Assembly (NCBI GenBank): GCA_031409795.1
Contig: JANNXX010000041.1
Coordinates: 11,210 to 75,209 of the forward strand
Origin: Rhodobacterales bacterium
GTDB lineage: Bacteria; Pseudomonadota; Alphaproteobacteria; Rhodobacterales; Rhodobacteraceae
Reading direction: 5' to 3'
DNA: 64,000 nucleotides
Part shown: piece by piece, positions 444 to 56,603 of the stretch
Layout of the letters: each line of letters opens with the position of its first letter
Numbering within the stretch: position 1 is the first letter of the stretch
The notes under the pieces: model-generated
Told to the model about the DNA's origin: nothing
Databases searched by the model: none
The model's input: the letters and a program-made list of their open reading frames with translations, nothing else
Position numbers and translations under genes: made by a program

Positions 444-1886
444 TCAGCCGTGCTTGATCATCACATGCCGGACGACAGTGTAATCTTCCAGCGCATAGGC
501 GGACATGTCCTTGCCGTAGCCGCTTTGCTTCAACCCGCCGTGCGGCATTTCATTGGTCAGCATGAAATGCGTGTTGATCCAGGTGCAGCCGTAGCGCAGC
601 CGCGCGGCCGTCGCCATCGCGCGGCCGACGTCGCGGGTCCAGACCGAAGAGGCCAGCCCGTAGTCGCTGTCATTGGCCCAACCCACGGCGTCATCGACAT
701 CCGAGAAAGGTGTGACAGACACGACCGGGCCGAATACCTCGCGGCGCACGATCTCGTCGTCCTGCTTTGCCCCGGCCACCACCGTGGGTCGGTAGTAGAA
801 GCCCTGGTCCATCGCCTCGCCGCCCGTTGTCACCTGCACATGGTTCAACTCCCGTGCGCGGTTGACGAAGCTGGCCACCCGGTCGCGCTGGCGCTGGCTG
901 ATCAGGGGGCCGATCTCGTTGGTGGTGTCATCCTCGGCGCCAAGGGTGATCGAGGCGGCGGCAGAGGTCAGGTCGGCGACCAGCCGGTCATAGACCTTTT
1001 TCCCGGCATAGACGCGGCAGGCGGCGGTGCAGTCCTGCCCGGCGTTGTAGAAGCTGAAGGCGCGCAGGCCTTCGACCACAGCACTGATATCGGCGTCATC
1101 GAAGACGATGACCGGGGCCTTGCCGCCCAGTTCCAGATGGGTGCGCTTGACGGTCTTGGCGGCGGCATCCAGCATCTTCTTGCCGGTCGCCACATCGCCG
1201 GTCAGGCTGATCATGTCCACGCCGGGATGGTTGATCAGGTAGCTTCCGACGGTCTGGCCGCGCCCGGTAACCACGCTGACCACACCGTCAGGCAGTTCGT
1301 CAGCCAGGATCTTCGCCATCTTCAGCGCGGTCAGCGGGGTCTGCTCGCTGGGCTTGAAGATCACCGTATTGCCGCCGCCAATGGCGGGGCCAAGCTTCCA
1401 GGCCATCATCATCAAGGGGTAGTTCCAGGGCGCGATGGAGGCCACCACGCCGACCGGATCGCGGCGGATCATGCTGGTGTGGCCGGACAGGTATTCGCCG
1501 GCAACGGTTCCGTGCTGGCAGCGCACGGCGCCCGCGAAGTAGCGGTAGCAATCGACGATGGCGGGAATTTCATCGTTCAGGGCGGCGTTGATCGGCTTGC
1601 CGCAGTTCAGCGCCTCCAGCGCGGCAAAGCTGTCCGCCTCGGCCTCGACCCGGTCGGCAATGCGCAGAAGGGCGGCCGAACGTTCGGCCGGCGTGGTGCG
1701 CGACCAGCCCTCGAACGCCTTGCGGGCGGCGGCGACGGCGCGGTCAACCTGGGCGGGCGAGGCTTCGGGCACCTCAAGGATCAGCGCGCCGGTGCGCGGG
1801 TTCAGGATCTGCTCGCGCGCTTCGTGGCCCAACTCGAAGGTGGACCCGATCAGAAGGGCGGTGTCGATGGTGGTGAGGGTGTCCAT
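444..1886 (-). CDS. patD: Gamma-aminobutyraldehyde (1-pyrroline) dehydrogenase, ALDH family
   Basis: 480 aa; ALDH motifs PWNYP, FTG-like SLTG, ELGGK (catalytic Glu), GQDCTA (catalytic Cys), EVFGP; last gene of a ydcSTUV-like operon as in E. coli ydcW/patD. Confidence 0.9.
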
Positions 1887-1898
1887 GACGAAGGTTCC

Positions 1899-2717
1899 TT
1901 ATTTGCCCATGCCGGCGGTCTCGGATCCGCCGCGGGTCAGGTAATAGGCTGCAAGGATCGGCACGAAGGTGGCCGCGAAGACCACGATGGCGACGACATT
2001 GGTGACCGGGCGTTGCCGTGGGCGCACCAGCTCGTTCAGCATCCAGATCGGCAGGGTGCTTTGCTGCCCGGCGGTGAAGGTGGTGACGATGACCTCGTCG
2101 AACGACAGGGCAAAGGCCAGCATCCCCCCCGCCAGCAAGGCGGAGCCGAGGTTGGGCCTCAGCACATGGCGGAAGGTCTGGAAGGCGTTGGCGCCAAGGT
2201 CGGCCGAGGCCTCCATGATCCCGCCGGAAAGGCGCCGCATCCGGGCGACGGCGTTGTTGTAGACGATGACGATGCAGAAGGTGGCGTGGCCCAGCACGAT
2301 GGTCCAGGTGGAAAACGGGATGTCCATCACCCCGAAGGCCGACCGGAGCGACATGCCGGTGATGACGCCGGGCAGGGCGATGGGCAAGAGGATCAGCAGG
2401 CTGATCTGATCGCGGCCGAAGAACCTGGCCCGCGCCATCGCGGCGGCGACCAGGGTGCCAAGGATCATGGCCAGCGCGGTCGAGATCGCGGCGACCTTCA
2501 GCGACAGGAACAGGGGCGGCCAGATATCCTCACGCGCCCAGGCGACGCCGAACCACTGGGTCGTCAGGCCGGGGGGTGGAAACTGGTAGGTGCGTTCCTC
2601 GGTGGTGAAAGCGTAGAGGAAGATCAGCAGGATCGGCAGGTGCAGGAACAAAAGCCCACCCAGCGCCGCGACCTTCAGGCCAAGGGTGGCAGTGGGGGCC
2701 TGGGGATCAGAGCGCAT
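1899..2717 (-). CDS. ydcV: Polyamine ABC transporter permease (YdcV/PotC-like)
   Basis: Hydrophobic helices; EAA loop [15 protein letters not shown]; [10 protein letters not shown] motif; ATG 2717 chosen because it overlaps the end of the upstream gene. Confidence 0.85.
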
Positions 2718-3645
2718 CGAAGGCCCCCGCGCGTTTGGCAAGCGTCAGATAGACCAGCATGATCAGGATCGGAACCACGGCGAAGGCGGCGGCCAGGGGC
2801 GTGTTCCCGGCGGTGCCCTGCAACTGGTAGACGGCAAGGCCGATGAAGCGGGCGCTGTCGCCGACGATCTGCGGAATGATGTAGTCGCCCAGCGTCAGCG
2901 AGAAGGTGAAGATCGATCCGGCGATCACCCCCGGCATGGCCAGCGGCAGGACCACGGTGCGGAAGGTCTGCGACCGGGTGGCGCCAAGATCGGCCGAGGC
3001 TTCCAGCATCGAGGTCGGCACCCGTTCAAGCGCGGCCTGCATCGGCAGGATCATGTAGGGCAGCCAGACGTAGACAAAGACCAGGAAGGTGCCGAAGGGC
3101 GAGGTGGAGAGGGACGAGCCTTCAAGCCCGGGGATGGCCAGGACGGCGTCGATCAGGAACCCGGTCCCGGTGCCCTCGGCGGCCCAGGTCACGATGCCCT
3201 CCTTCGCGAGAATCAGTTTCCAGGCGTAGACCTTGACCAGGTAGCTGGACCACAAGGGCAGCATGACTCCAAGGTAGAAGGCCGCTTTCCACGGGCCTTT
3301 TGCGTAGCGGGCAGCGTAGTAGGCGATGGGGAAGGCCAGCACGGCGCAGGCCAGGGTTACCGCGGCGGACATCACCACGGTGCGCAGGATGATGTCGAGG
3401 TTCTGGGCGCGAAACAGCTCGGCATAGGTCTTGAGGGTGAACTCTTCCTTCACCACGCCCGAAAACTCGTCGATCGAGTAGAAGCTTTGCAGGAGAAGTG
3501 CGGCAAGCGAGCCCAGATAGACCACGCCCAGCCAGAGAAGCGGCGGGGTGACCAGAAGCAGCAGAAGGACGTTCGGCCGGCGCCAGAAGAGTCCGGTCAG
3601 CCGGTCAGACACGCCACGGGCGGGAAGGATTGCGGGGGCGGTCAA
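2707..3645 (-). CDS. ydcU: Polyamine ABC transporter permease (YdcU/PotB-like); start uncertain (TTG 3645 or GTG 3834)
   Basis: [18 protein letters not shown] loop; FSLTLGDYI motif; permease-like sequence begins at about TTG 3645 ([11 protein letters not shown]). Confidence 0.8.
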
Positions 3646-3665
3646 CGCGGCGCCCCCGGCCCGGA

Positions 3666-3688
3666 AAAATCCTTGAAGGAAGGATTTT
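3666..3688. repeat. Palindrome related to the TTCGAA-core family (family B)
   Basis: AAAATCCTT-GAAGG-AAGGATTTT, inside the ~180 bp insert between the ATPase and permease genes. Confidence 0.55.
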
Positions 3689-3826
3689 GGGCGCCCGGTT
3701 GCAGGAGACGGCCAGCGTTGCCGGGGTCGGAGCCTCTGGCGGGGAAATTTGCGGACGAGGAATGGCGCGGGCTGACCCACATTCTGCGCCCCTTGCAACG
3801 GTCGGGCTGGGCATTGTCGACAGGCA

Positions 3827-4825
3827 TCAGGCACCCCCCATCAGGTGCAGGGCCGAAGGTTCGAAGGCGATTGCGGTCCGCTCGCCTTCGGCAGGGACCG
3901 GCTGGCCCGCCGGGACAAGGGCGGCGATTTCCGTCCCGTCGGCGTCCAGCACCACGCGGGTGCCCGAGCCAAGGTAGCGCAGCGCCGTGACGCGGCCGGT
4001 CACCGGGCCGGTCGCGGCCAGGCGGGTCGCCTCGGGGCGCAGCGAGGCCCAGCTGTCCGGGCCACCAAGCGCGCGGGTCAGGGCCGGCGGCAGTACGTTC
4101 GACGAGCCGACGAAATCGGCGACGAAGCGGGTGGCGGGCCGGTCGTAGATGTCCTGCGGCGAGCCGATCTGGGCGATGCGGCCCTCGTTGAAGACGGCGA
4201 GGTGATCGGCCATCGACAGGGCCTCGTGCTGGTCATGGGTGACGAAGACGAAGGTCAGGCCCAGGCGGTGTTGCAGGGCCTTCAGCTCGTCCTGCATCGC
4301 CTCGCGCAGCTTGAGGTCAAGCGCGCCAAGCGGTTCGTCCAGGAGCAGCACCCGCGGTTCGTTCACCAGCGCCCGGGCCAGGGCGACACGCTGGCGCTGG
4401 CCGCCGGACAGCTGCGCGGGCTTGCGGTCGCCGTAGGCGTCCAGCTTGACCAGGGCAAGCATTTCCTCGGCCTTGGCATGGCGTCTGGCGCGCGGGGTGC
4501 CCTTGACCATCAGCCCATAGGCCACGTTGTCGCGCACGTTCAGGTGCGGAAAGAGCGCGTAGTCCTGAAACACCGTGTTGACGTTGCGCAAATGTGGCGG
4601 GGTGTTCGAGACATCCTCGCCGAAGATGCGGATCTGGCCGCCGGTTGGTTTCTCGAAGCCCGAGATCAGGCGCAGGCAGGTGGTCTTGCCCGACCCGGAC
4701 GGCCCCAGCATGGCGAAGAACGAGCCCTCGGCGATGGTCAGATCGACGCCATCGACGGCCTTCACCGGTGCGGAGGCGGGGCCGAAATGGCGCGAGACGG
4801 AGTGGAAGGTGACGGCAGCGGTCAT
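3827..4825 (-). CDS. ydcT: Polyamine ABC transporter ATP-binding protein (YdcT/PotA-like)
   Basis: Walker A GPSGSGKT, signature LSGGQRQRV, Walker B LLLDE, H-loop; alternative start at 4840. Confidence 0.92.
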
Positions 4826-4943
4826 GGGGCTTTCTTGCATAGAACGGGCAAGCCTCCCGTTTTCACCGTCCCTGAAGACAGGGAAGGCGGCGCGGGGTGC
4901 CCAAAGGTAAGGCCTGCGGCGACAGTCAGTTCGGAAAAGGTGG

Positions 4944-4980
4944 CTCCCCTTCCCCTTGGCGGGGGAGGGGAGGAGCGGGG
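4944..4980 (-). repeat. REP-like palindrome (family A)
   Basis: Minus strand CCCCGCTCCTCCCCTCCCCC-GCCAA-GGGGAAGGGGAG, just downstream of the SBP stop codon. Confidence 0.65.
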
Positions 4981-4996
4981 TTTCCCCCGACCGGGC

Positions 4997-6154
4997 TTAG
5001 CGCCCGCCGATCACGCCGATATAGTCCGAGACCCAGCGGTAATAGGGCACGCACATGCCGTCGCCCTGGGCGCAGTTCGACACGGGGGTGGTCCAGAACC
5101 GGATCTTCTCGAAGTCGTCAAGCCCGTTGGCGGTACAGGTTTCCGCCGTGGCCATGCCGCGCCCGTCGGTGCAGGCCGCCGGAACCGAGGGGTTCGCGCC
5201 GAACCAGACCGCAAGGTCGGATTGCAGGTTCGAGGACAGCGTGTGTTCCATCCACAGATAGGCGCAGTTCGGGTTCGCCGCATCGACATGCATCATCGTC
5301 GTGTCAGCCCAGCCGGTGGCGCCTTCCTGAGGGATCACCGAGGCGACGGGCTGGCCTTCGCCTTTCAGGAGGTTGACCTGGAAGGGCCAGGACCCGGACG
5401 CGACCACGCCTTCGTTCTTGAAGTCATCCATCTGGATGAAGGCGTCGTGCCAGTAGCGCGAGGTCAGGTCGCGTTGAACGCGCAGCAGATCAAGCGCGGC
5501 CTTGTACTGCTCTTCGTTCAGCTCGTAGGGCGAGGTGATGCCAAGTTCCGGCTTGTGGAACATCAGGTATTGCGCCGCATCGGCGACGTGGATCGGGCCG
5601 TCATAGGCCTGGACCCGGCCCTTGTTCGACTGGCCGTCGGGCAGAGTGGTTTCCTCGAACACCACCGACCACGAGGTTGGCGGTTCCTTGAAAACCTCGG
5701 TGTTGTACATCAGCACGTTCGGTCCCCACATGTAGGGAACGCCGAAATGCACGCCGTCGACCGTGTGCCAGGGCGCGCTTTGCAGGCGGGGGTCGACGGT
5801 GGACCAGGACGGGATCAGGTCGATGTTGACCGGCTGCACGCGGTCACCGGCCACCAGACGCAGCGAGGCGTCGCCCGAGGCGGTCACCAGGTCAAAGCCG
5901 CCTTCGTTCATCAGCGCAACCATTTCATCCGAGGTGTTCGCGGTCTTGACGTTGACCTTGCACCCGCTGGCAGCTTCGAACTTGGTGACCCAGTCGAAGG
6001 TCTTGTCGGTTTCGCCACGCTCGATGTAGCCAGGCCAGGCGACGATGTTCACCTGGCCTTCCGGCGCGCCGATTTCAGTGATCTGGGCCAGTGCCGGGGT
6101 CAGCCCGGTCAGCACGGCAAGGGCCGTCGTGGCCATCAGCTTCATGTGTCTCAT
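4997..6154 (-). CDS. ydcS: Polyamine ABC transporter substrate-binding protein (YdcS-like)
   Basis: Signal peptide; AWPGYIERGETDK...DWVTKFE, SDEMV, TASGDASLRL and WGPN segments match what I recall of E. coli YdcS; SD GGGAG upstream of ATG 6154. Confidence 0.9.
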   Translation of the reverse strand: MRHMKLMATTALAVLTGLTPALAQITEIGAPEGQVNIVAWPGYIERGETDKTFDWVTKFEAASGCKVNVKTANTSDEMVALMNEGGFDLVTASGDASLRLVAGDRVQPVNIDLIPSWSTVDPRLQSAPWHTVDGVHFGVPYMWGPNVLMYNTEVFKEPPTSWSVVFEETTLPDGQSNKGRVQAYDGPIHVADAAQYLMFHKPELGITSPYELNEEQYKAALDLLRVQRDLTSRYWHDAFIQMDDFKNEGVVASGSWPFQVNLLKGEGQPVASVIPQEGATGWADTTMMHVDAANPNCAYLWMEHTLSSNLQSDLAVWFGANPSVPAACTDGRGMATAETCTANGLDDFEKIRFWTTPVSNCAQGDGMCVPYYRWVSDYIGVIGGR

Positions 6155-6265
6155 CGCAAACTCCCTCTGGTTGGTCGCGCACAGCCGCGCCACGCCGGTT
6201 TTCCGGTCATGTCAGCACGCTACGACCACCGGAAGAAATCGCAATAACAAAACGGGGATGAGAGG

Positions 6266-6367: not shown

Positions 6368-6736
6368 ATGAACATCAAGGATGCCGCCGCGGCAAGCGGG
6401 CTGTCAATTGACACGATCCGGTTCTACGAGAAATCGGGGATGCTGCCCAAGGTGCAGCGCGATGCGCGGGGGTGGCGGCGGTTCGACGCGGGCGCCGTGG
6501 ACTGGCTGCGCAATCTGGAACGGCTGCGGGCCACGGGCATGCCGATGGCCGATATGCGCCGGTTCGCGCTGCTGGTGCATGGGGCCGGCCACCCCGGCGC
6601 GGCGGCGGCGCGGCTGGAGATTCTGCAACGGCATGGCGAACGGCTGGCGCTCCGTCGGCACGAGGTAGAGGCCTGCCAGGCGTATCTCGACCAGAAGATC
6701 AGCATTTACAGCAGGATGACGGAGGATCAGCGATGA
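6368..6736 (+). CDS. MerR-family transcriptional regulator (AdhR/NmlR-like)
   Basis: MNIKDAAAASGLSIDTIRFYEKSGML HTH, R-x-F wing motif, C-terminal coiled coil with a single Cys; SD AAGGA. Confidence 0.9.
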   Translation: MNIKDAAAASGLSIDTIRFYEKSGMLPKVQRDARGWRRFDAGAVDWLRNLERLRATGMPMADMRRFALLVHGAGHPGAAAARLEILQRHGERLALRRHEVEACQAYLDQKISIYSRMTEDQR

Positions 6737-7725
6737 TCATGCGAAGAGTGTGGGACGGGGCAACGGTGCCCGCGCTGGGCCTGGGGTGTTGGGCCATCGG
6801 TGGCCCGTGGACGGCGGGAGGCGCGCCAGCGGGCTGGGGCGTGGTGGATGATGCAGAATCCCTCCGCGCCATTCATGCGGGGGTCGCGGCGGGCGTGCGG
6901 TTTTTCGACACTGCGCAGGCCTATGGGGCGGGGCACTCCGAGACGGTGTTGGGGCAAGCGCTGCGGCATCACCCAGAGGTGCGGCTGGCGACGAAAGTCG
7001 GACTGGCAATCGATCCGGCGCGCCGCACCTTGATCGGCGAGGATCTGGCCGGGATCGCGGGGTCCGTCGACGGCTCCCTGCGGCGGCTCCGGCGGGACCG
7101 GATCGACCTGGTGCTCTTGCATCTGAACAGCCTGCCTGTTGCCGAGGCGGAAGCGGTCTTCGATACGCTCGACGACCTGTGCGTTGCGGGAAAGATCGCG
7201 GCCTATGGGTGGAGCACGGATTTCCCCGACAGGGCGGCCGCCTTTGCGCACCGGCCTGGGATGGTCGCAATCGAACATGCGATGAACGTGTTCTTCCGGG
7301 CTGACGCCCTGATGTCGGTGATCGCGGTACATGGTCTTATGTCGATCAACCGCTCGCCGCTGGCGATGGGACTGCTGGGCGGAAAGTATGAAAACGGCCA
7401 CCGCTTCGGCCGCGATGACGTCCGCAGCCGAAACGCGGACTGGATGGATTACTTCAAGGGCGGCGGGGTCGCGCCCGAGCTTCAGGCCCGGTTGAGTGCC
7501 GTCCGCGATCTCTTGCAGACCGGCGGGCGCTCGCTGGCGCAAGGGGCGATCGGCTGGCTTTGGGCGCGGTCCGGGGCGACCCTGCCGATCCCCGGCTTTC
7601 GGACCGTGGCGCAGGTCGAAGACCTGGCGGCAGCCTTGCAGAAAGGTGCCCTGCCAGCGTCGGTGATGGAAGAGATCGAGACGGTCATCCAGCGCGAGCC
7701 CGAAGGCCCGCCACGCGAACGCTGA
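6733..7725 (+). CDS. Aldo/keto reductase
   Basis: LGLGCW, FDTAQAYG, ATKVG, LLH tetrad residues, PIPG motif; ATGA overlap with the MerR stop. Confidence 0.9.
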   Translation: MIMRRVWDGATVPALGLGCWAIGGPWTAGGAPAGWGVVDDAESLRAIHAGVAAGVRFFDTAQAYGAGHSETVLGQALRHHPEVRLATKVGLAIDPARRTLIGEDLAGIAGSVDGSLRRLRRDRIDLVLLHLNSLPVAEAEAVFDTLDDLCVAGKIAAYGWSTDFPDRAAAFAHRPGMVAIEHAMNVFFRADALMSVIAVHGLMSINRSPLAMGLLGGKYENGHRFGRDDVRSRNADWMDYFKGGGVAPELQARLSAVRDLLQTGGRSLAQGAIGWLWARSGATLPIPGFRTVAQVEDLAAALQKGALPASVMEEIETVIQREPEGPPRER

Positions 7726-17973: not shown

Positions 17974-19448
17974 GTGATGATCACCTTGTCCATATAGCTG
18001 TCCCAGAACCCGTTCCGCAGCCGCAGCCTCGGGTCGACCGTCAGCTTCACCTTCAGGAAATCCACCGTGCGGGGATAGCAGCGGCTGAACTGCTCGACCG
18101 TCGCATGCGGCCGGTAGGGAAGATAGTAGCTGCCGCCAATGGCCAGCACCGCGTCGATCAGCGCGCGGGTCATCCGGGCCATGTCGGCCTCGGCCCGCGC
18201 GGTCATCTCCTGGCTGAAGAGCAGAACCGAGGCGATGCGCGGGCCGTCCGGGGCATAGCTCAGCAGCGCGGTCGGGTCCTGCGCCACCCAGCGCAGCGTG
18301 ATGTTCAAAAGCTCTTGATAGCTGCCGGGAATGATCGCGCGCGCGGCGGTCAGGAAATCGCCGAACCGGTCCGGCGCGACGAAGTATTCGTGCAGGATAT
18401 CGGTGCGGGTGGGGTCGCGGTCGTCCAGCGTGATGACGGGTTCGTTCATCAGGCTGGACCGGCTGGCCGCCCCCTGCAGGCTGGCACCGACGCCGGTTTC
18501 GATCCCCCAGCGGCGGCGCTTGACCCATTCGTTGCCCGGCTGCGCCCGAAAGATCGCGCGCGAGGCTTTCGACAGAATGCCCGATCCGGCGGCCGGGGGG
18601 ATGTCGCCCGCAACCGGCCGATAAGTCACCAGCATCGCATCGTCGAAGAACCCCTCGCGGTCGATGTTCAGGCGGCCGTAAGCCATGGGCACCGACCCGT
18701 CAGCCACGGCGGTGAAGGCCGCAGCGAAATCGGCGGCGGGCATGGTCTGGAACATCGGCTCCAAGAGCTGGTTCGGCGCGGCCTCGACCTCCAGCTCGGT
18801 GATCAGGCCGATCAACCCATAGCCCCCCATCGCGGCCGCGAAGAGATCGGCGTTTTCCGTGCGGGACGCGGTGACCAGACTGCCGTCCGCCAGCAGCATC
18901 TGCACCGATCGGACGGTCGACCCCATCGGGCCATAGGGAATTGGCCAGCCATGCGCATTCACCGAAAAGGTGGAGGCAACGCCGAAATCGCTGTTCGACT
19001 GCATCACCTTGGGCGACAGGCCCAAGGGATCAAGCGCCGCGATGACCTGGTTCCAGCGAGTGCCCGCCTGCACGCGGTAGACATCACCCTCGGCCGTCAC
19101 CGATGGCGTGTCGAAGGTGATCGCGTGACCGTCGCGCGGGATCGCCTGACCGCCCATCGTGTGCCGGGCCGCGCCGATGCAGACCGGGCGACCCTCGGCC
19201 TCGGCGGCCTTCAGTTCGGCACGCAGGGCGGCGATCAGCGCTTCGCCGGGCGGCTCCTTGACGACGATATGCCGGAAGACCGGGGTTTCCGACAACAGCG
19301 AGGCGTCGTTCAGAACAGTTTCCCCGCCCGCGGGCGCGATGATGGACACCCCGTCCAGCGATGGGTTTGCCGCCCCGATCCAGCGGGTGCCGATCACCCC
19401 CGCCGCCGCCCCGGCTCCGAACAGCGCCGCCCGTCGTGTCAGCGCCAT
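17970..19448 (-). CDS. FAD-linked oxidoreductase (VAO/PCMH-type FAD-binding domain) with a twin-arginine signal
   Basis: MALTRRAALFG Tat-like motif; ARHTMGG flavinylation-type motif; SVNAHG; GGYGLIG; LNITLR. Confidence 0.85.
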   Translation of the reverse strand: MALTRRAALFGAGAAAGVIGTRWIGAANPSLDGVSIIAPAGGETVLNDASLLSETPVFRHIVVKEPPGEALIAALRAELKAAEAEGRPVCIGAARHTMGGQAIPRDGHAITFDTPSVTAEGDVYRVQAGTRWNQVIAALDPLGLSPKVMQSNSDFGVASTFSVNAHGWPIPYGPMGSTVRSVQMLLADGSLVTASRTENADLFAAAMGGYGLIGLITELEVEAAPNQLLEPMFQTMPAADFAAAFTAVADGSVPMAYGRLNIDREGFFDDAMLVTYRPVAGDIPPAAGSGILSKASRAIFRAQPGNEWVKRRRWGIETGVGASLQGAASRSSLMNEPVITLDDRDPTRTDILHEYFVAPDRFGDFLTAARAIIPGSYQELLNITLRWVAQDPTALLSYAPDGPRIASVLLFSQEMTARAEADMARMTRALIDAVLAIGGSYYLPYRPHATVEQFSRCYPRTVDFLKVKLTVDPRLRLRNGFWDSYMDKVIIT

Positions 19449-19534: not shown

Positions 19535-21421
19535 TCACGTCAGCCACACCCGTGCATAGGGCGGCAGCACGATCTTGCCCTGATGTGCCTCGACCGGCTG
19601 GTCGGACAGCGCGTCATGCATCGCCGATGCCCCCAGCGCGCGGGCAAGGCCTGCGTCGACCTGCTGCCAGGCTTCGGTAAAGTTGAACAGGCCCAGCAGC
19701 GTGCCGGTCGGTGCCAGGCGCTGGAACGCCAGCACGGCGGGCGATCCACTGCCCGTCACCCGGATCGGCACGCCCGCATGCAGCGCGGGCGTCGCCGCGC
19801 GGCGGGCCAGGATCTGCTTCGTACCCCAGAACACCCGCGAGGCCGGGGTGTCGCCTGAATGCCGCGCCTCGGCCTTGGCCCAATCCATCCGGGGGCGGTG
19901 GATCCAGCGGCTGTCATGTGCGTGCTCCGGCACGGTCAGATAGCCATGGTCGTTCGTCTGCGCCAGCTCGTCGCCCATGTAGATCAGCGGGATGCCGCCC
20001 CAGGCCGCGATCAGCGCATGGCCCATCAGGATGCGCTGGACCGCCATCTCGACCCCCGCCGCGTCGTCTGCCGCCTCGGCCCGCTCCAGCCCGGCAAGCG
20101 AGGCGAAGCTGCCGGAGATGCGCTTGTCGCCGGTTGCCGCGTTGAACTGGAAAAGCGCGCCCCTGGCGAAGGTGCCGGGGAAACCACCTTCGTAGAAATC
20201 CGACAGGAAACTGCGGTGACCGTGGCCCGAGGCCCCCACCGCCGCCGCATCCTCGTCAGTGATCGCCCAGCCGATGTCGTCATGGCAGCGGATATAGGTG
20301 GCATAGGTCGCATTGGTCAGCCGGTCGGGGAAATGGAGCCCTAGCACATGGCTCATCAGACGCACATCGCGGGTGGCCAGTGCCGACCAGAACTGCACCA
20401 TCAGGCTGTTGTGATAGGCCAGGTTGCCCTCTTTCCCGTCATGCTGGCCACGGCCCAGGTAGGGCAGCATCTCCGCCGGGGCGACGATCGCCTCTTCCAG
20501 ATGCAGCACGGCGGCACTGGAGATGCGGCTGCAGGCGCGCAGGGCCTGAAGCAGCATGTGAACCTCGGGTTCCGACTGGCAGCGGGTGCCCATCCGCTTC
20601 CACATGAAGGCCACGGCATCCAGCCGCAGCACATCAACGCCCTTGTTGGCCAGGAACAGCATCACCGCGACGATTTCCAGGAACACCTGCGGATTGGCCC
20701 AGTTCAGGTCCCACTGGTGTTCGTTGAAGGTGGTCCAGACCCACTTTTCGACCTCGGGGCAATGGGTGAAGTTGCCTGGCGCGTTGTCGGGGAAGACCTC
20801 GACCAGCGTGCGTTCGTACTGGCCGGGCAGGTCGGGCGTGTCGAACATCAGGTAATAGTCCTGATAGACCGGATCGCCCTTCGCCGCCTTCTTCGCCCAG
20901 GCATGCTCTTTCGCGGTGTGGTTCAGCACAAGGTCGACACACAGCGACATGCCCCGCGCCCGCAGGGCGGCGCTGACCGCCTCGAAATCCGCCATCGTGC
21001 CGAAGGCGGGGTTGATCTGGCGGTAGTCCATCACCGAATAGCCGCCGTCGCTGTCACCGGGGCGGGGCTTCAGGCAGGGCATCAGGTGGACATAGGTAAT
21101 GCCGAGGTCTTCGAGGTAGTCGAGTTTGTCGAGAATGCCTTTGAGGGTACCGTTGAAGCGGTCGATGTAGAAGACATAGCCCGCCATGCCGGGGCGCTGG
21201 AACCAGTCGGGTTCAAGGTCGCGGGTCAGGTCCAGCCGCTTGAGGTCGGCGGGGCGGTCGGCCCAGCCCTTGCGCAGGGCCTTGACCAGCTTGTCACGGA
21301 ATGCCGGGTAGTCCGGCCGCGCGCCATAAAGCGCCTCCAGCATCGGGAAGAGATCGGGGGTCGACCGGGCCAGCCGCAAATCGAAAATGTCGTCATCCGC
21401 GCCGGACGGCGTTCTGGCCAT
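19535..21421 (-). CDS. GH13 amylosucrase-like glycoside hydrolase/transglucosylase
   Basis: DGGYSV, DLVLNH, LRLDAV (nucleophile), EEAIV (acid/base), YIRCHDDIGW. Confidence 0.88.
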   Translation of the reverse strand: MARTPSGADDDIFDLRLARSTPDLFPMLEALYGARPDYPAFRDKLVKALRKGWADRPADLKRLDLTRDLEPDWFQRPGMAGYVFYIDRFNGTLKGILDKLDYLEDLGITYVHLMPCLKPRPGDSDGGYSVMDYRQINPAFGTMADFEAVSAALRARGMSLCVDLVLNHTAKEHAWAKKAAKGDPVYQDYYLMFDTPDLPGQYERTLVEVFPDNAPGNFTHCPEVEKWVWTTFNEHQWDLNWANPQVFLEIVAVMLFLANKGVDVLRLDAVAFMWKRMGTRCQSEPEVHMLLQALRACSRISSAAVLHLEEAIVAPAEMLPYLGRGQHDGKEGNLAYHNSLMVQFWSALATRDVRLMSHVLGLHFPDRLTNATYATYIRCHDDIGWAITDEDAAAVGASGHGHRSFLSDFYEGGFPGTFARGALFQFNAATGDKRISGSFASLAGLERAEAADDAAGVEMAVQRILMGHALIAAWGGIPLIYMGDELAQTNDHGYLTVPEHAHDSRWIHRPRMDWAKAEARHSGDTPASRVFWGTKQILARRAATPALHAGVPIRVTGSGSPAVLAFQRLAPTGTLLGLFNFTEAWQQVDAGLARALGASAMHDALSDQPVEAHQGKIVLPPYARVWLT

Positions 21422-23287: not shown

Positions 23288-23974
23288 ATGGCTGGACTTC
23301 GGAAGATCCTCTTGGTTGACGATGACGACGACCTGCGCGAGGCGCTGAGCGAACAGCTGGTGATGACCGAGGATTTCGACGTGTTCGAAGCCCGCACCGG
23401 TGCCGAGGGCATGGAGAAGGCCAAGGCCGGGCTTTACGATCTGGTGATCCTGGACGTGGGCCTGCCCGATACCGACGGCCGTGAGCTGTGCCGCAGGATG
23501 CGCAAGGGCGGGGTGAAATGCCCGATCCTGATGCTGACCGGGCATGACACCGACAGCGACACGATCCTGGGCCTTGATGCCGGTGCCAACGACTATGTGA
23601 CCAAGCCGTTCAAGTTCCCGGTGCTTCTGGCCCGCATCCGCGCGCAGCTGCGCACGCATGAACAGTCGGAAGACGCGATCTTCCAGATGGGCCCCTACAC
23701 GTTCAAGCCCGCGCAGAAGATGCTGCTGGACGAAAAGGAAAAGAAGATCCGCCTGACCGAGAAAGAGACAAACATCCTGAAATACCTCTACCGCGCGCAG
23801 TCGGGCGTGGTGGCGCGGGATGTCCTGCTGCACGAGGTCTGGGGCTACAACGCCGGGGTCACCACCCACACGCTGGAGACCCATATCTACCGGCTGCGCC
23901 AGAAGATCGAGCCCGATCCCTCGAACGCGCGGCTGCTGGTCACCGAAAGCGGTGGCTACCGGCTGGTCGCCTGA
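23288..23974 (+). CDS. cenR: OmpR-family response regulator, CenR-like
   Basis: Receiver domain (DDD, LDV phospho-Asp, KPF) plus winged HTH ([20 protein letters not shown]); sequence and ribA linkage resemble alphaproteobacterial CenR. Confidence 0.8.
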
Positions 23975-24074: not shown

Positions 24075-24189
24075 TTGCTAGCTTTCTCGCATGCACCGGT
24101 TGTGCAGCAGGTTCCCCTTGTCGCGTCGGGGTTATGGCGCGGCATCCTCCCTGTTGGACCTGGCCGGGCCGCTTGCCCGGCCTTTTTTT
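24075..24189 (+). ncRNA. Candidate SorX-like 3'UTR-derived small RNA (5' end approximate)
   Basis: Anti-SD motif ATCCTCCCTG (24144-24153) followed by a strong terminator, in the 3' UTR of the CenR/OmpR-1-type gene where SorX is known to lie in R. sphaeroides. Confidence 0.65.
24162..24189 (+). terminator. Rho-independent terminator of the cenR/sRNA transcript
   Basis: GGCCGGGC-CGCTT-GCCCGGCC-TTTTTTT. Confidence 0.9.
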
Positions 24190-52776: not shown

Positions 52777-52841
52777 ATGAACGAACTCAATCTTTTTGTG
52801 AAGCGCCCGCCAGAGGCCCCCACCCCAACCCGGAGAAGATC

Positions 52842-53891
52842 ATGGCCCAGACCCGCCTTGCTGCCACCTCGCTTGCCCTGCTGCTGACTTCCACCCCCGG
52901 GCTTGCGCAAGAGTTGAACGCCCTTGTGTGGTGCGACCACACCGACCCCGCGCTGACCAAGCCGTTCGAAGAGAAGTTCGGCGTCAAGGTGAACCTGAAG
53001 GAATACGAAGGCACTGCGGCGGGCCTGGCGATCCTGGAGCAGTCGCAGCCCGGGGACTGGGACGTTCTGGTGATCGACGCGGTCGACGTGGGCCGCGCGG
53101 TCGAGGCCGGGCATCTGGCGGAACTGCCGGCGGACAAGCTGCCCACGGCGGATTTCTTTCCGGAGCTGGTGATGGCCGAGAACAACATGGTCGGCGGCAA
53201 GACCTATGCCGTGACGGAAAAATTCGGCTACAACACCATCTCTTACGACAAGTCCAAGGTCGACCCGGCGGATATGGAGGATATGGCCACCTTGACCAGC
53301 GGCAAGTACGACGGGCGGATCGGGATCTACGACTACTACTTGCCGGTCATCGGGCTGGTGGCACTGGGGCAGGGGATCAATACGGCGGACATCTCGGCCG
53401 ACACCCTCGGGTCGCTGAAGGATCCGCTGATGGCCCTGCGCGGCGCGGCCAAGCAGGTGTCGGACGTGGTGTCGGCCCAGACCGCGTTGGCGACGGGCGA
53501 GGTGGATATCATCGTCGGAGGCGGCGAATGGCTGACGGCGGTGCTGGCGGCCGAGAACCCGAACCTCGACTGGACGATCCCGAAGCAGGGCGCCCTGCGC
53601 TGGGCGCAGTCGATCGGCGTGGTGGCCGGGTCGACCCAGCCCGATCTGGCGCTGGAGTTCGTCACCTACATCACCTCGCCCGAGGGGCAGGCGCGGCTGG
53701 CCACATCCTCGTGCTACTGGGGGATGCCGGCGAACGCCAAGGCCGGGGATCTGCTGACGCCGGAACAGAAGGCGGTGCTGCGCTGGGACCAGCAGCCCGA
53801 GTTCCTGGCCCGCGCCCAGCTTTACCCGATCCCGGATGCCGCCCTTGACACCGCAATGCAGGATCTCTGGACCGAGATGCTGGCCCGGTAA
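52842..53891 (+). CDS. Polyamine-type (PotD/PotF family) ABC substrate-binding protein
   Basis: Signal peptide; VWCDH, DWDVLV, KFGYNTISY, EG-like QGALRWAQSIGV. Confidence 0.85.
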   Translation: MAQTRLAATSLALLLTSTPGLAQELNALVWCDHTDPALTKPFEEKFGVKVNLKEYEGTAAGLAILEQSQPGDWDVLVIDAVDVGRAVEAGHLAELPADKLPTADFFPELVMAENNMVGGKTYAVTEKFGYNTISYDKSKVDPADMEDMATLTSGKYDGRIGIYDYYLPVIGLVALGQGINTADISADTLGSLKDPLMALRGAAKQVSDVVSAQTALATGEVDIIVGGGEWLTAVLAAENPNLDWTIPKQGALRWAQSIGVVAGSTQPDLALEFVTYITSPEGQARLATSSCYWGMPANAKAGDLLTPEQKAVLRWDQQPEFLARAQLYPIPDAALDTAMQDLWTEMLAR

Positions 53892-53900
53892 GCCCGCGCG

Positions 53901-54755
53901 ATGTCACTGGCCGGACAAGACCGCCGTCTGGGCTGGGGGCTGATCGCCCCGGCGCTGATCTGGACGGCGGTTTTCTTCCTTCTGCCCTTTCTGGCGATGG
54001 TGGCGCTGTCCTTCGCGTCGATGACCGGGCGGCAGGTGGTGCATGGCTTCGACCCCGGCAACTATGTCCGCATCTTCACCGACCCGACGATGCTGGGCGC
54101 GCTGGTCAACAGCCTGCAGATCACGGCTGTCGTGACCGTGATCTCGGTCATCCTGGCCTACCCGCTGGCCGCGATCATCGCCTTCCGGGTGCCTGCACGC
54201 TGGCAGCGGCTGGCGCTTCTGCTGGCTGTGCTGCCGTTCTGGACGTCCTACGTCGTGCGGTCCTACTCCTGGCTGCTGGTGCTGGGGCAGAACGGGGTGG
54301 TGAACCAGACGCTGCTGGGTCTGGGTGTCATCGCTGAGCCCTTGGAGATCGCCTCGACCCGGGCGGCGACTGTGATCGGCTTCGTGCATTTCTTCGTCAT
54401 GCTGCTGACGCTGACGATCTATGCCAACCTCATCCAGCTGTCGCCGAACTATGCCCGCGCGGCGCAGGACCTTGGGGCCGGTCGCTGGCAGACCTTCGCC
54501 CATGTGATCCTGCCGCTGACCCTGCCGGGGGTGGTGACCGGGGCGTTCCTGACCTTCGTGCTGTGCATCGGCGACTACATCACGCCGCAGATCCTGGGCG
54601 GGAATGCCGAATTGACGCTGCCGCAGCTGATCATGCTGCAACTGGGGCGCAGCGGGAACTTTCCTTTGGCCTCGGCCCTTTCGGTGGTGCTGATGGCGGT
54701 GGTGACGCTGGCCTATGTCGCATCGAGCCGCTGGTTGCGGCTGGACCGGGTATGA
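53901..54755 (+). CDS. ABC transporter permease (PotB-like)
   Basis: LPFWTSYVVRSYSW; AAQDLGAGRWQTF EAA loop; GDYITPQILGG. Confidence 0.9.
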   Translation: MSLAGQDRRLGWGLIAPALIWTAVFFLLPFLAMVALSFASMTGRQVVHGFDPGNYVRIFTDPTMLGALVNSLQITAVVTVISVILAYPLAAIIAFRVPARWQRLALLLAVLPFWTSYVVRSYSWLLVLGQNGVVNQTLLGLGVIAEPLEIASTRAATVIGFVHFFVMLLTLTIYANLIQLSPNYARAAQDLGAGRWQTFAHVILPLTLPGVVTGAFLTFVLCIGDYITPQILGGNAELTLPQLIMLQLGRSGNFPLASALSVVLMAVVTLAYVASSRWLRLDRV

Positions 54756-54761
54756 TGGGGC

Positions 54762-54827
54762 GCTCGTCGATGACTTCGTCACTCCTCGCTGCGGGTGCTC
54801 CGACGAGGAGACGAAGTCGAACGAGGA
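54762..54827. repeat. Long imperfect inverted repeat inserted between permease genes
   Basis: CTCGT..GACTTCGTC.CTCCTCG / CGAGGAG-ACGAAGTC..ACGAG; insert flanked by ATGATG on both sides. Confidence 0.7.
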
Positions 54828-54837
54828 GGCTGTCGCG

Positions 54838-55608
54838 ATGATGCGTGTCCTCTCCTGGGCCTATCTCGGACTCGCCTATTTCTTCGTCTTCCTGCCGGTC
54901 GTCGTGCTGGTGGTGTTCAGCTTTCAGGACGGCCGTCTGCCGGTGCCTCCGTTAAAAGGCTTCACGCTGGACTGGTATGCCAAGGTCATTGGCGACGAAG
55001 CCCTGATGGCGGCGCTGGTGAACTCGCTGGCCGTTGCCGTCGTCTCGTCCGCCGTGGCGCTGGTCCTGGGCTTCCTTGCCGCGCATGCGCTGGCCCGTGT
55101 CCGCTTGCCGGGCTCGGCGCTGCTGCGCGGGGTGCTGATCGCGCCGATGACGGTCAGTTACCTGATCATCGCGCTGGGCCTTCTGACCGTTTTCAATCAG
55201 CTGGGCCTTCGCCCGTCGCTCATGGCCGCCGGGATCGGGCATGTGGTGATCAACCTGCCCCTGTGTTTTGCCATCACCTATGCCGCGATGGGCGACCACC
55301 AGAAATCCGCCGAACGCGCCGCGCGCGATCTGGGCGCGCCGGAATGGAAGGTGCTGGCGCTGGTCTCCGCCCCGATGCTAACCGCCCCCCTTGCCGCCGC
55401 CTTCTTCCTGTCCGTCACCTTCAGCTGGGACGAGTTCATCATCGCCTTCCTGCTGACCCGCTTTGACGTGACCCTGCCGGTCGAGATCTGGTCGATGTTG
55501 AAATCCGGCCTGTCGCCCGCGACCAATGCCGTCGGCGCGCTGGTGTTCCTTGTTTCGGTGGCGCTGGTGATCGTGCTTGAACTGACAGTTTTCCGGAGGG
55601 CAAGATGA
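54838..55608 (+). CDS. ABC transporter permease (PotC-like)
   Basis: SD GAGGAGG; FTLDWY; ERAARDLGA; FSWDEFI; TLPVEIW. Confidence 0.9.
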   Translation: MMRVLSWAYLGLAYFFVFLPVVVLVVFSFQDGRLPVPPLKGFTLDWYAKVIGDEALMAALVNSLAVAVVSSAVALVLGFLAAHALARVRLPGSALLRGVLIAPMTVSYLIIALGLLTVFNQLGLRPSLMAAGIGHVVINLPLCFAITYAAMGDHQKSAERAARDLGAPEWKVLALVSAPMLTAPLAAAFFLSVTFSWDEFIIAFLLTRFDVTLPVEIWSMLKSGLSPATNAVGALVFLVSVALVIVLELTVFRRAR

Positions 55609-56603
55609 CTGCCGCGGTGTCCATCCTGCAGGTGTCGCAACGCTATGGCAGCGCCACGGCGCTGGATGCCGTGACGCTTGATATCGAAGCGGGGGAGTTT
55701 GTCGTCCTCCTTGGCCCCTCGGGCTGCGGCAAGACCACGCTGCTCAACATCATCGGCGGCTTTGCCGAACCGACAGAAGGCCGCGTGCTGATCGGCGGGC
55801 GTGACATGGCAGGGGTGGCCCCGAAGGACCGGCCGACGACGACGGTGTTTCAGGATTATGCCCTCTTCCCCCACATTAGCCTGCGCGACAACGTGGCCTT
55901 CGGCCTGCGGATGCGCGGGGTTTCGCGGGCGAAACGCGCGGCGAAGGCCGACGCCATGCTGGCGTTGGTCGGCCTGGACGGGCGCAGCGACCATCGTCCG
56001 CATGAGCTGTCGGGCGGGCAGCGGCAGCGGGTGGCCCTGGCCCGAGCGCTGGCGGTGGAGCCCGAGGTTCTGCTTTTGGACGAACCGCTCGGCGCGCTGG
56101 ACCTGAAGCTGCGCCGCCAGATGCAGGACGAGCTGAAGGCGATCCAGCGCCGGGTGGGGACGACCTTTGTTCATGTGACCCATGACCAGGAGGAAGCGAT
56201 GGCCATCGCCGACCGCATCGTGGTGATGAACGCGGGGCAGGTCGAGGATTTCGCCCCCCCGCGTGAGGTGTACCTGCACCCCAAGACCCTATTTACCGCC
56301 AGTTTCATGGGCGAGGTGAACCGGGTTCCAGTGCTGGGCGGGCAAGCCCCCTTCGGCCCGGTGCCGGTGGCGGATGGCACGCTCTGCTTGCGGCCCGAAG
56401 CAATTTCCACCACGGGGACGCTGCGGCTCGGGCCATGCCGGGTGGCGGATGTGGCCTTCTTCGGCACCCATGTCCGTGCGCATGTGTCCCCACTGGCCGC
56501 GCCCGACTTGCGGCTGGTGGTGCATCTGCCGCAATCTGCGGTGCCAGAGGTCGGCGCGGTCCTGGACCTTGGGGCGGAAAGCCATGTGGTTCTGCAGGGA
56601 TGA
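55605..56603 (+). CDS. ABC transporter ATP-binding protein (PotA-like)
   Basis: [41 protein letters not shown]. Confidence 0.93.
   Translation: MTAAVSILQVSQRYGSATALDAVTLDIEAGEFVVLLGPSGCGKTTLLNIIGGFAEPTEGRVLIGGRDMAGVAPKDRPTTTVFQDYALFPHISLRDNVAFGLRMRGVSRAKRAAKADAMLALVGLDGRSDHRPHELSGGQRQRVALARALAVEPEVLLLDEPLGALDLKLRRQMQDELKAIQRRVGTTFVHVTHDQEEAMAIADRIVVMNAGQVEDFAPPREVYLHPKTLFTASFMGEVNRVPVLGGQAPFGPVPVADGTLCLRPEAISTTGTLRLGPCRVADVAFFGTHVRAHVSPLAAPDLRLVVHLPQSAVPEVGAVLDLGAESHVVLQG

Follow-up and report, generated by a model that had tools for sequence, protein, structure and literature searches.

In the window, by which the whole 64-kb stretch of DNA analysed here is meant, the translation-initiation region (TIR) of a ydcS-like gene is complementary to the seed of the small RNA (sRNA) SorX. 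Given that this seed includes an anti-Shine-Dalgarno (anti-SD) core, the locus raises the question of whether the complementarity marks a site of regulation or accompanies any strong Shine-Dalgarno (SD) sequence. The reading favored here, with about even confidence, is that positions 6156-6174 form a SorX pairing site, which would make ydcS a plausible new predicted target of a known sRNA. The interpretation given in the initial annotation, which had proposed the same target, is partly supported overall.

The SorX locus and the ydcS-like operon

SorX (RF02784), which scores 70.5 bits (gathering score 46.6; E 3e-15) over all 73 positions of its model (1-73), is alone among the Rfam families in having a match in the 64-kb window. 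In its minimum free energy (MFE) fold, the 75-nt RNA consists of hairpin 1 and a Rho-independent terminator with a U tail, between which the linker CCUCCCUGUUGGA stays single-stranded. The sRNA starts 140 nt past the stop codon of an OmpR-type response regulator gene, the ATG of which, at 23288, is preceded by a GGAGG SD, and which has 92% identity to the Cereibacter regulator and is the counterpart of RSP_0847. The same order, with the sRNA after the OmpR-type regulator gene, is described for RSP_0847/SorX in the R. sphaeroides literature, and is also found in C. azotoformans and in 30 metagenome loci. The Rfam match, the position in the 3' UTR of the regulator and the fold all bear out the initial identification of the sRNA as SorX. 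As had also been stated there, the SorX of R. sphaeroides acts as a repressor of potA, the gene of a polyamine transporter subunit, which is confirmed by reviews; the coordinates of the SorX-potA pairing were not found in this secondary literature on SorX.

The ydcS-like frame, with its ATG at 6154..6152 on the minus strand, has as its best NCBIfam family the YdcS equivalog NF041888 (592.9 bits, the cutoff of 725 not being reached, over 376/379 profile positions), and 94% of its product aligns with E. coli YdcS, at an identity of 59%. The order of the operon (SBP, ATPase, permease, permease, aminobutyraldehyde dehydrogenase) is that of E. coli ydcSTUV-patD, and the family matches and the gene order together uphold the earlier claim that ydcS heads an operon of the YdcSTUV-PatD type (Table 1). 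The closest relatives of the window are Tabrizicola/'Rhodobacter' calidifons, with a YdcS identity of 92%, and none of the RNA-seq runs searched for the organism had its sequence, which is present only in freshwater-sediment metagenome DNA.

Table 1. Positions in the window of the SorX locus, the two polyamine transporter operons and the predicted pairing sites (SBP, substrate-binding protein)
Feature	Position	Strand	Basis
ydcS-like periplasmic SBP gene, 385 aa, first cistron	4997..6154	-	NCBIfam, E. coli identity
Rest of the ydcS operon	444..4840	-	Family matches, gene order
ydcT/PotA-like ATPase gene	4840 or 4825 to 3827	-	
Two permease genes	3834-2707, 2741-1899	-	
PatD-like aminobutyraldehyde dehydrogenase gene	1886-444	-	NF010000, 789 bits (cutoff 615)
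ydcS TIR complementary to SorX	6156..6174	-	Strand reading, RNAduplex, ortholog conservation
Parts of the ydcS TIR	CCAAC 6174..6170; CAG bulge 6169..6167; AGGGAG 6166..6161; UU 6160..6159; UGC 6158..6156	-	
Putative ydcS promoter, TTGCGA (6244..6239), 16 nt, TAGCGT (6222..6217)	6194..6244 including the stem-loop	-	Conserved leader blocks
Conserved 5' stem-loop AUGACCGGAAAACCGGC	6210..6194	-	Ortholog leader alignment
OmpR-type response regulator gene, 3' UTR carrying SorX	23288..23974	+	NCBIfam response-regulator matches
SorX sRNA homologue, mature 75-nt form	24114..24188	+	Rfam match, fold, alignment with Cereibacter azotoformans and metagenome SorX
SorX seed CCUCCCUGUUGGA (anti-SD CCUCCC and G/U-rich UGUUGGA)	24146..24158	+	Seed kept across SorX loci
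Second SorX-complementary TIR, CCAAC-CC-GGAG, 6 nt before ATG 52842	52825..52835	+	Ortholog leaders, flank control
PotD-like polyamine binding-protein gene	52842-53891	+	Signal peptide, SBP_bac_8 domains
Second ABC operon (SBP, permease, permease, PotA-like ATPase), PotD-like gene first	52842-56603	+	

Only three blocks are shared by the ydcS leaders of the orthologs, namely a promoter-like TTGCGA, the 5' stem-loop AUGACCGGAAAACCGGC and the SD block, and between them lies a G+C-rich hairpin that is variable in both sequence and length. The putative promoter would give a ydcS 5' UTR of approximately 56 nt, with an equally putative transcription start, and a consensus promoter scan of the ydcS upstream region yielded no match. 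Given that the middle hairpin differs in length, RNAalifold recovered no consensus structure from 25 ydcS leaders, and the alignment alone was used. In the MFE fold of the window leader, the SD region is partly paired (z-score -1.3). The layout of the leader is kept across the Rhodobacterales, with a single-stranded C/A-rich stretch preceding the SD, and TTGCGAA is found in Rhizobiales ydcS leaders too.

Predicted pairing at the ydcS start and its rank within the window

The plus strand at 6156-6174 reads GCAAACTCCCTCTGGTTGG, the mRNA from the minus strand reads CCAAC-CAG-AGGGAG-UU-UGC-G-AUG, and the SorX side, at 24142-24157, reads GCATCCTCCCTGTTGG, which agrees with the sequences that had been given for both places. 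The pairing would join CCAAC to GUUGG (5 bp) and AGGGAG to CUCCCU (6 bp), with a 3-nt bulge of the mRNA between the two helices, and, beyond a 2x2 mismatch, UGC to GCA (3 bp). The duplex of 5+6+3 bp that was described initially is right in its arithmetic and in covering the SD, but its 3-bp leg is doubtful, given that in the MFE fold the base of SorX hairpin 1 includes GCA (24142-24144), and this hairpin would have to open for UGC:GCA to form; in the Rfam alignment the G of GCA is paired and CA is an insert. The RNAduplex energy is -21.4 kcal/mol for the 21-nt linker including GCA, and -16.0 for the strictly single-stranded 17-mer UCCUCCCUGUUGGACCU. Interaction predictors such as IntaRNA usually require a 7-bp seed, and an unbroken helix of 7 bp or more with the seed is present in 34/50 of the Rhodobacterales orthologs and absent from the window ydcS, where the longest uninterrupted SorX helix is one of 6 bp on the SD, with 5 bp more upstream.

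Two other energy estimates were rejected. The value of -63 kcal/mol obtained by RNAduplex with full-length SorX is meaningless, given that intramolecular structure is ignored, and an IntaRNA-like score, which combined hybrid and opening energies over near-optimal duplexes only, returned mostly positive totals because only long duplexes were sampled; RNAcofold ensemble energies were used instead.

In the proposed mechanism, positions 6156-6174 comprise the SD and an upstream C/A-rich element of the ydcS-like mRNA, with which the linker of SorX, encoded 18 kb away, would pair through its anti-SD core CCUCCC (on AGGGAG) and its G/U-rich UGUUGGA (on CCAAC), and this pairing would occlude the 30S binding site. 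SorX accumulating under oxidative or heat stress would then lower the synthesis of YdcS, and probably the stability of the operon mRNA too, the likely result being a reduced import of polyamines, as for potA in R. sphaeroides. The expression of SorX under RpoHI/HII control, its processing by RNase E to about 75 nt, its dependence on Hfq, its pairing in vivo and the direction of the regulation would, in this scheme, follow the R. sphaeroides literature, from which they are taken by analogy.

The alternative that survives best, which is possible if somewhat unlikely, is that ydcS merely has an ordinary strong SD facing an anti-SD-like seed, with CCAAC present by chance or as a generic C/A-rich enhancer, and that ydcS is not regulated by SorX. 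The ranking within the window is what this explanation would lead one to expect. Among the 45 TIRs called by a GC3/SD heuristic over the 64 kb of genome covered, that of ydcS comes 17/45 by duplex energy; when RNAcofold ensemble binding energy is used, it comes 20/45, at -8.3 kcal/mol, and five others of the called TIRs have 6 nt or more of contiguous complementarity to the seed. Equally good duplexes number in the hundreds in this GC-rich genome, given that the two strands of the window, with its 66% G+C, have 697 distinct sites at -16 kcal/mol or lower for the single-stranded seed; of the 538 background TIRs, taken from Rhodobacterales loci, 33% equal or surpass the window ydcS in their binding of SorX. 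Within the window, then, the match between ydcS and SorX does not exceed chance, and the rank above ordinary SD matches that the initial annotation had looked for does not appear inside the 64-kb fragment.

Two of the other TIRs were noted during this ranking. The longest contiguous seed complement among the window TIRs, 8 nt, is AGGGAGGA, which is one of the five just named and is located before an amylosucrase/alpha-amylase-family gene at 21421 (-), and a FAD-binding oxidase gene at 19448 (-), with ACAAGGGAG, has rank 3/45 by cofold (-15.1).

The secondary candidates named alongside ydcS have proved weak. The first of these, GGGAGG at 4853-4858, belongs to a small hairpin with a stem of 6 bp (AACGGG-AGGCUUG-CCCGUU), of which it forms the loop side, and its distance is 12 nt to ATG 4840 and 27 nt to ATG 4825. 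The orthologous ydcT start, M-T-A-A-V, corresponds to ATG 4825 (MTAAVTF), with weak SDs, and the ydcT-like ATPase probably starts there rather than at 4840; judged by these sequences, the GGGAGG upstream of the gene is no SD. The ydcT starts of the orthologs share no site complementary to SorX, and GGGAGG is rejected as a SorX target on account of the hairpin, the wrong spacing and this lack of ortholog conservation. The second, the TIR of the PotA-like gene at 55605 (CCGGAGGGCAAG), reaches only -14.7 kcal/mol, with rank 34/45.

Conservation of the leaders and of the SorX seed

A scan of species-representative genomes provided 80 ydcS loci, 50 classed as Rhodobacterales and 19 as Rhizobiales by record title, and it is only this cross-species comparison of sequences that lifts the ydcS site above an ordinary SD match. 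In the Rhodobacterales, GGGAG is found in 45/50 of the ydcS leaders, CAGGGAG in 31/50, and ACAGGGAG or a longer form, up to CAACAGGGAG, in 21/50, whereas the 502 other TIRs of the same loci have GGGAG in 47 cases, with CAGGGAG in only 1 of those 47. It speaks against an ordinary SD that conservation of the two to four bases preceding GGGAG is confined to the ydcS orthologs, and among these to the Rhodobacterales. Complementarity to 8 or more contiguous nt of the seed is present in 21/50 of the ydcS orthologs versus 5/502 of the background TIRs. When the Rhodobacterales leaders are anchored on GGAG, A accounts for 82% at position -2, C for 71% at -3 and A for 69% at -4, followed further upstream by C (56%) or A (33%) at -5 and C (51%) at -6, while the columns farther out and those 3' of the SD are near random in the same alignment. 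The leader consensus is CCcACAGGGAG, as compared with the SorX complement CCAACAGGGAG (...CCAACA-GGGAG). The mean cofold dG of the ydcS orthologs is -10.9 versus -6.8 (sd 3.7) for the background, with a Mann-Whitney U p of 8e-13 that overstates the case, given that the orthologs are phylogenetically non-independent.

A control on the flank of the seed bears directly on the bases beyond the SD. With the UCCUCCC core fixed and the UGUUGGA flank swapped for 140 permutations or 400 random 7-mers, the real flank gave a ydcS-minus-background difference (background being the GGAG-type TIRs) of -2.88 kcal/mol, which, for the Rhodobacterales ydcS, was matched by 0/400 random flanks and by none of the other 139 permutations. 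An ordinary SD would hardly account for upstream bases that fit the non-SD part of the seed better than 400/400 random flanks. In the Rhizobiales ydcS orthologs the same control had no effect, the real flank being unremarkable (36/140; 58/400).

The Rhodobacterales leaders that lack CAGGGAG are often in two parts, such as CCAAC-GGGAG (L004, L009) or GUCCAA-AGGGAG (L011), and other variants read CCAACCAAA(A)GGGAG (L006, L008) or CCAACAGGAAGG (L034, L050, L058), with CAACAGGGAAAG in a more distant ydcS ortholog, that of Thioclava. As far as can be read from these sequences, the variant leaders keep their complementarity to SorX by other routes. By the same comparison, the ydcS site of the window appears as a degenerate, bulged form (6+5 bp) of the contiguous complement of 7-10 nt found in most relatives, and the regulation in this organism may therefore be weak.

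The complementarity of the Rhodobacterales ydcS leaders to SorX is thus conserved beyond the SD, a result that supports pairing in those genomes if the presence of SorX there, which is assumed from the clade-wide invariance of the seed, is granted. No SorX was found within the 80 ydcS loci themselves, as expected at a distance of about 18 kb, and among the isolate genomes the regulator matches did not coincide with the ydcS-bearing isolates. Of the initial proposal that ydcS is a SorX target, the conservation of the site has held up, while its rank in the window is ordinary.

The invariance of the seed was assessed in 80 loci from a metagenome scan with the response regulator as the query. The exact 12-mer CCTCCCTGTTGG, which served as the search pattern for the seed, is present in 30/40 of the loci with a regulator identity of at least 74%, followed each time by A, a 13th base that was read afterwards, and then by the terminator, so that the seed CCUCCCUGUUGGA is identical in all 30 of the SorX-bearing loci found through its first 12 bases. 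The seed of Cereibacter azotoformans is also identical to that of the window SorX. Unlike the seed, hairpin 1 and the terminator stem vary among the 30 seed-bearing loci. Three of the 10 seed-negative loci at or above 74% identity have less than 150 nt of downstream sequence, and 39/40 of the regulator homologues below 74% (68-73% identical), which probably represent other orders, are without the seed. The invariance of the half of the seed that is not anti-SD (UGUUGGA) argues, at the level of sequence, that there are conserved targets that pair with it.

Downstream of the regulator orthologs L117, which is among the 10 seed-negative loci at or above 74%, and L126, the remaining one of the 40 below it, lie SorX-like RNAs with the variant seeds CCUCCCUGUUGAA and UCUCCCUGUUGAA, the former differing by a single G-to-A change and the latter by a two-base change. 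Six other regulator orthologs of 79-87% identity (L099, L101, L109, L115, L116 and L119) have no seed within 600 nt; given that several regulator orthologs are without it, SorX is not universal in the clade.

A second site with the same pattern, which the initial annotation had missed, precedes the PotD-like gene at 52842, where 52825-52835 can pair with SorX through helices of 5 and 4 bp separated by a 2x2 loop. In the window, the TIRs of ydcS and of the PotD-like gene are the only 2/45 to have CCAAC placed 0-6 nt before GGAG. The same arrangement is seen in 5/541 of the TIRs called in the Rhodobacterales, namely that of the PotD-like gene 52842, those of three ydcS orthologs and that of an unrelated gene. 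Nine orthologous PotD-like loci of the Rhodobacterales read CCAACAGGAG, CAACAGGAG, CCAACAUGGAG, CCGACAUGGAG or GGUCCCAGCAAGGAG, with up to 10/11 positions of the complement of CUCCCUGUUGG, and the CCAACA(G/U)GGAG of the orthologs is a near-full complement of the seed. In the flank control on the PotD-like leaders, the real SorX flank was the best of the 140 permutations, and 4/400 of the random flanks matched its absolute energy and 0/400 the differential. In four outgroup orthologs (Rhizobium, Shinella, Azospirillum), which read CGACAGAGGG, CACCAGAGGGAA and similar, the trend was weaker (14/140). The recurrence of this pattern on the leader of a second polyamine binding protein further weighs against an ordinary SD, and by these comparisons the PotD-like gene is probably a co-target of SorX, with 52825-52835 probably being a stronger conserved target than the ydcS site. 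A search of the plasmid collection gave no Cereibacter match for either the YdcS-like or the PotD-like binding protein.

All of the ortholog loci retrieved for the PotD-like gene have a divergent TetR-family gene upstream of it.

Weaker C/A-rich elements before the SD are also found in the outgroup orthologs of the Rhizobiales and Azospirillum, which presumably lack SorX. This is what a generic enhancer would produce, and some of the conservation may accordingly date from before SorX or have nothing to do with it.

Other binding factors and related sRNA systems

A further explanation, which is rather improbable, is that the (C)ACAGGGAG block binds some other factor, either a different anti-SD sRNA of the Rhodobacterales, with a seed of the CUCCCUGUG type, or a CsrA-type protein, the match to SorX being incidental. 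The SELEX consensus of CsrA is ACARGGAUG, and ACAGGGA would fit the CsrA core motif; to our knowledge, CsrA is uncommon in the Rhodobacterales. It agrees with such a factor that the commonest base at -5 is C, where SorX needs A, and that the best-fitting hypothetical flank for the ydcS leaders is UGUGGUG rather than UGUUGGA, as does the finding that the Rhizobiales keep a different extended motif, UGGGAG (AbcR1), which would make this leader a regulatory hot-spot. No such factor was identified in this analysis, in which SorX is the one sRNA family at hand and is already linked to polyamine transport, and the leaders without ACAGGGAG keep CCAAC or GUCCAA, which fit SorX and not a fixed protein motif.

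The preferred reading, that of a SorX pairing site at ydcS, has its closest parallel in R. sphaeroides, where the regulation of potA by SorX was reportedly described by Peng et al. in 2016 (RNA Biol 13:988) for Rhodobacter (Cereibacter) sphaeroides. The two cases share the sRNA family, an identical seed, the position after an OmpR-type regulator gene, the theme of an ABC importer of the polyamine/opine family and, presumably, the mode of action, in which pairing at the TIR would lower transporter synthesis under oxidative stress. Unlike the R. sphaeroides potA, which encodes the ATPase, the candidate in the window is an SBP gene, the ydcS-like first cistron, and its regulation is a prediction.

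In enterobacteria, the G/U-rich seed of the sRNA GcvB pairs with C/A-rich elements at or upstream of the SD of the binding-protein genes of ABC importers. The pairing of the SorX UGUUGGA with CCAAC/ACA would follow the same logic, but GcvB is an unrelated RNA with amino-acid and peptide transporters as its targets, has no anti-SD core and is not dependent on a stress sigma factor.

The AbcR1/AbcR2 sRNAs of Agrobacterium, Sinorhizobium and Brucella resemble SorX in another respect, given that they are Hfq-dependent and use a single-stranded anti-SD UCCC to repress many ABC binding-protein mRNAs. They differ from it in belonging to another RNA family, in having their own genes rather than a 3' UTR, and in their target motif, which is UGGGAG as opposed to CAGGGAG. 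AbcR1 was mapped at UGGGAG on binding-protein mRNAs in Agrobacterium, including that of the spermidine/putrescine binding protein AttC (PMC4152367). The 64 kb of the window have no Rfam match to the AbcR family, and the window leader reads AGAGGGAG, not UGGGAG. The Rhizobiales ydcS leaders have, for the most part, (A)AUGGGAG, or else AACGGGAG, with CAGGGAG in 0/19. The ydcS-type leader may thus be an AbcR1 target in the Rhizobiales, and the sequences suggest that from one order to the next this leader has been fitted to whichever sRNA is resident there. In the Rhizobiales loci L025, L032, L043 and L079, (A)AUGGGAG lies about 10 nt before the ydcS ATG.

A broader scheme, which is offered tentatively and with considerable doubt, would have the leaders of the polyamine SBP genes re-tuned in each order to the resident anti-SD sRNA, with (CA)ACAGGGAG/CCAACAnGGAG fitted to the SorX CUCCCUGUUGG in the Rhodobacterales and UGGGAG to AbcR1 in the Rhizobiales. 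SorX would then be the functional counterpart of AbcR and GcvB in the Rhodobacterales, acting not on potA only but on the first cistron of each of two polyamine importers, which would form its conserved core regulon. If both targets are real, the conserved SorX regulon of the Rhodobacterales would be made up of the genes that head two polyamine importer operons, which would explain the absolute invariance of the UGUUGGA half of the seed and would tie stress-sigma signaling to the uptake of polyamines and, through patD, to their catabolism. The lineage-specific matching of seed and leader, by SorX here and AbcR1 in the Rhizobiales, would provide a testable case, in which a known mechanism is refined rather than a new one proposed. 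What is known is SorX and its repression of a polyamine transporter, with potA as its one published target according to the reviews, and what is new are the candidate sites on the ydcS-type and PotD-type leaders; if the R. sphaeroides potA operon were orthologous to either of the window operons, the finding would largely be a re-discovery.

Finally, two observations concern the surroundings of the ydcS-like gene. Divergent from it, at 6368-7725 (+), lie the genes of a MerR/NmlR-like regulator and an aldo-keto reductase, a pair also found in the metagenome-assembled contig L001, which is a carbonyl/aldehyde-stress module beside the polyamine/aminobutyraldehyde operon. The 156-nt spacer between ydcS and ydcT, at 4841-4996 (-), contains palindromes of C-tracts and G-tracts, for example CUCCCCUCCCC...GGGGAAGGGGAG, and in many orthologous loci the spacer has similar GGGGAGGGG hairpins, which, following the binding-protein gene, look like REP-type or mRNA-stabilizing elements.
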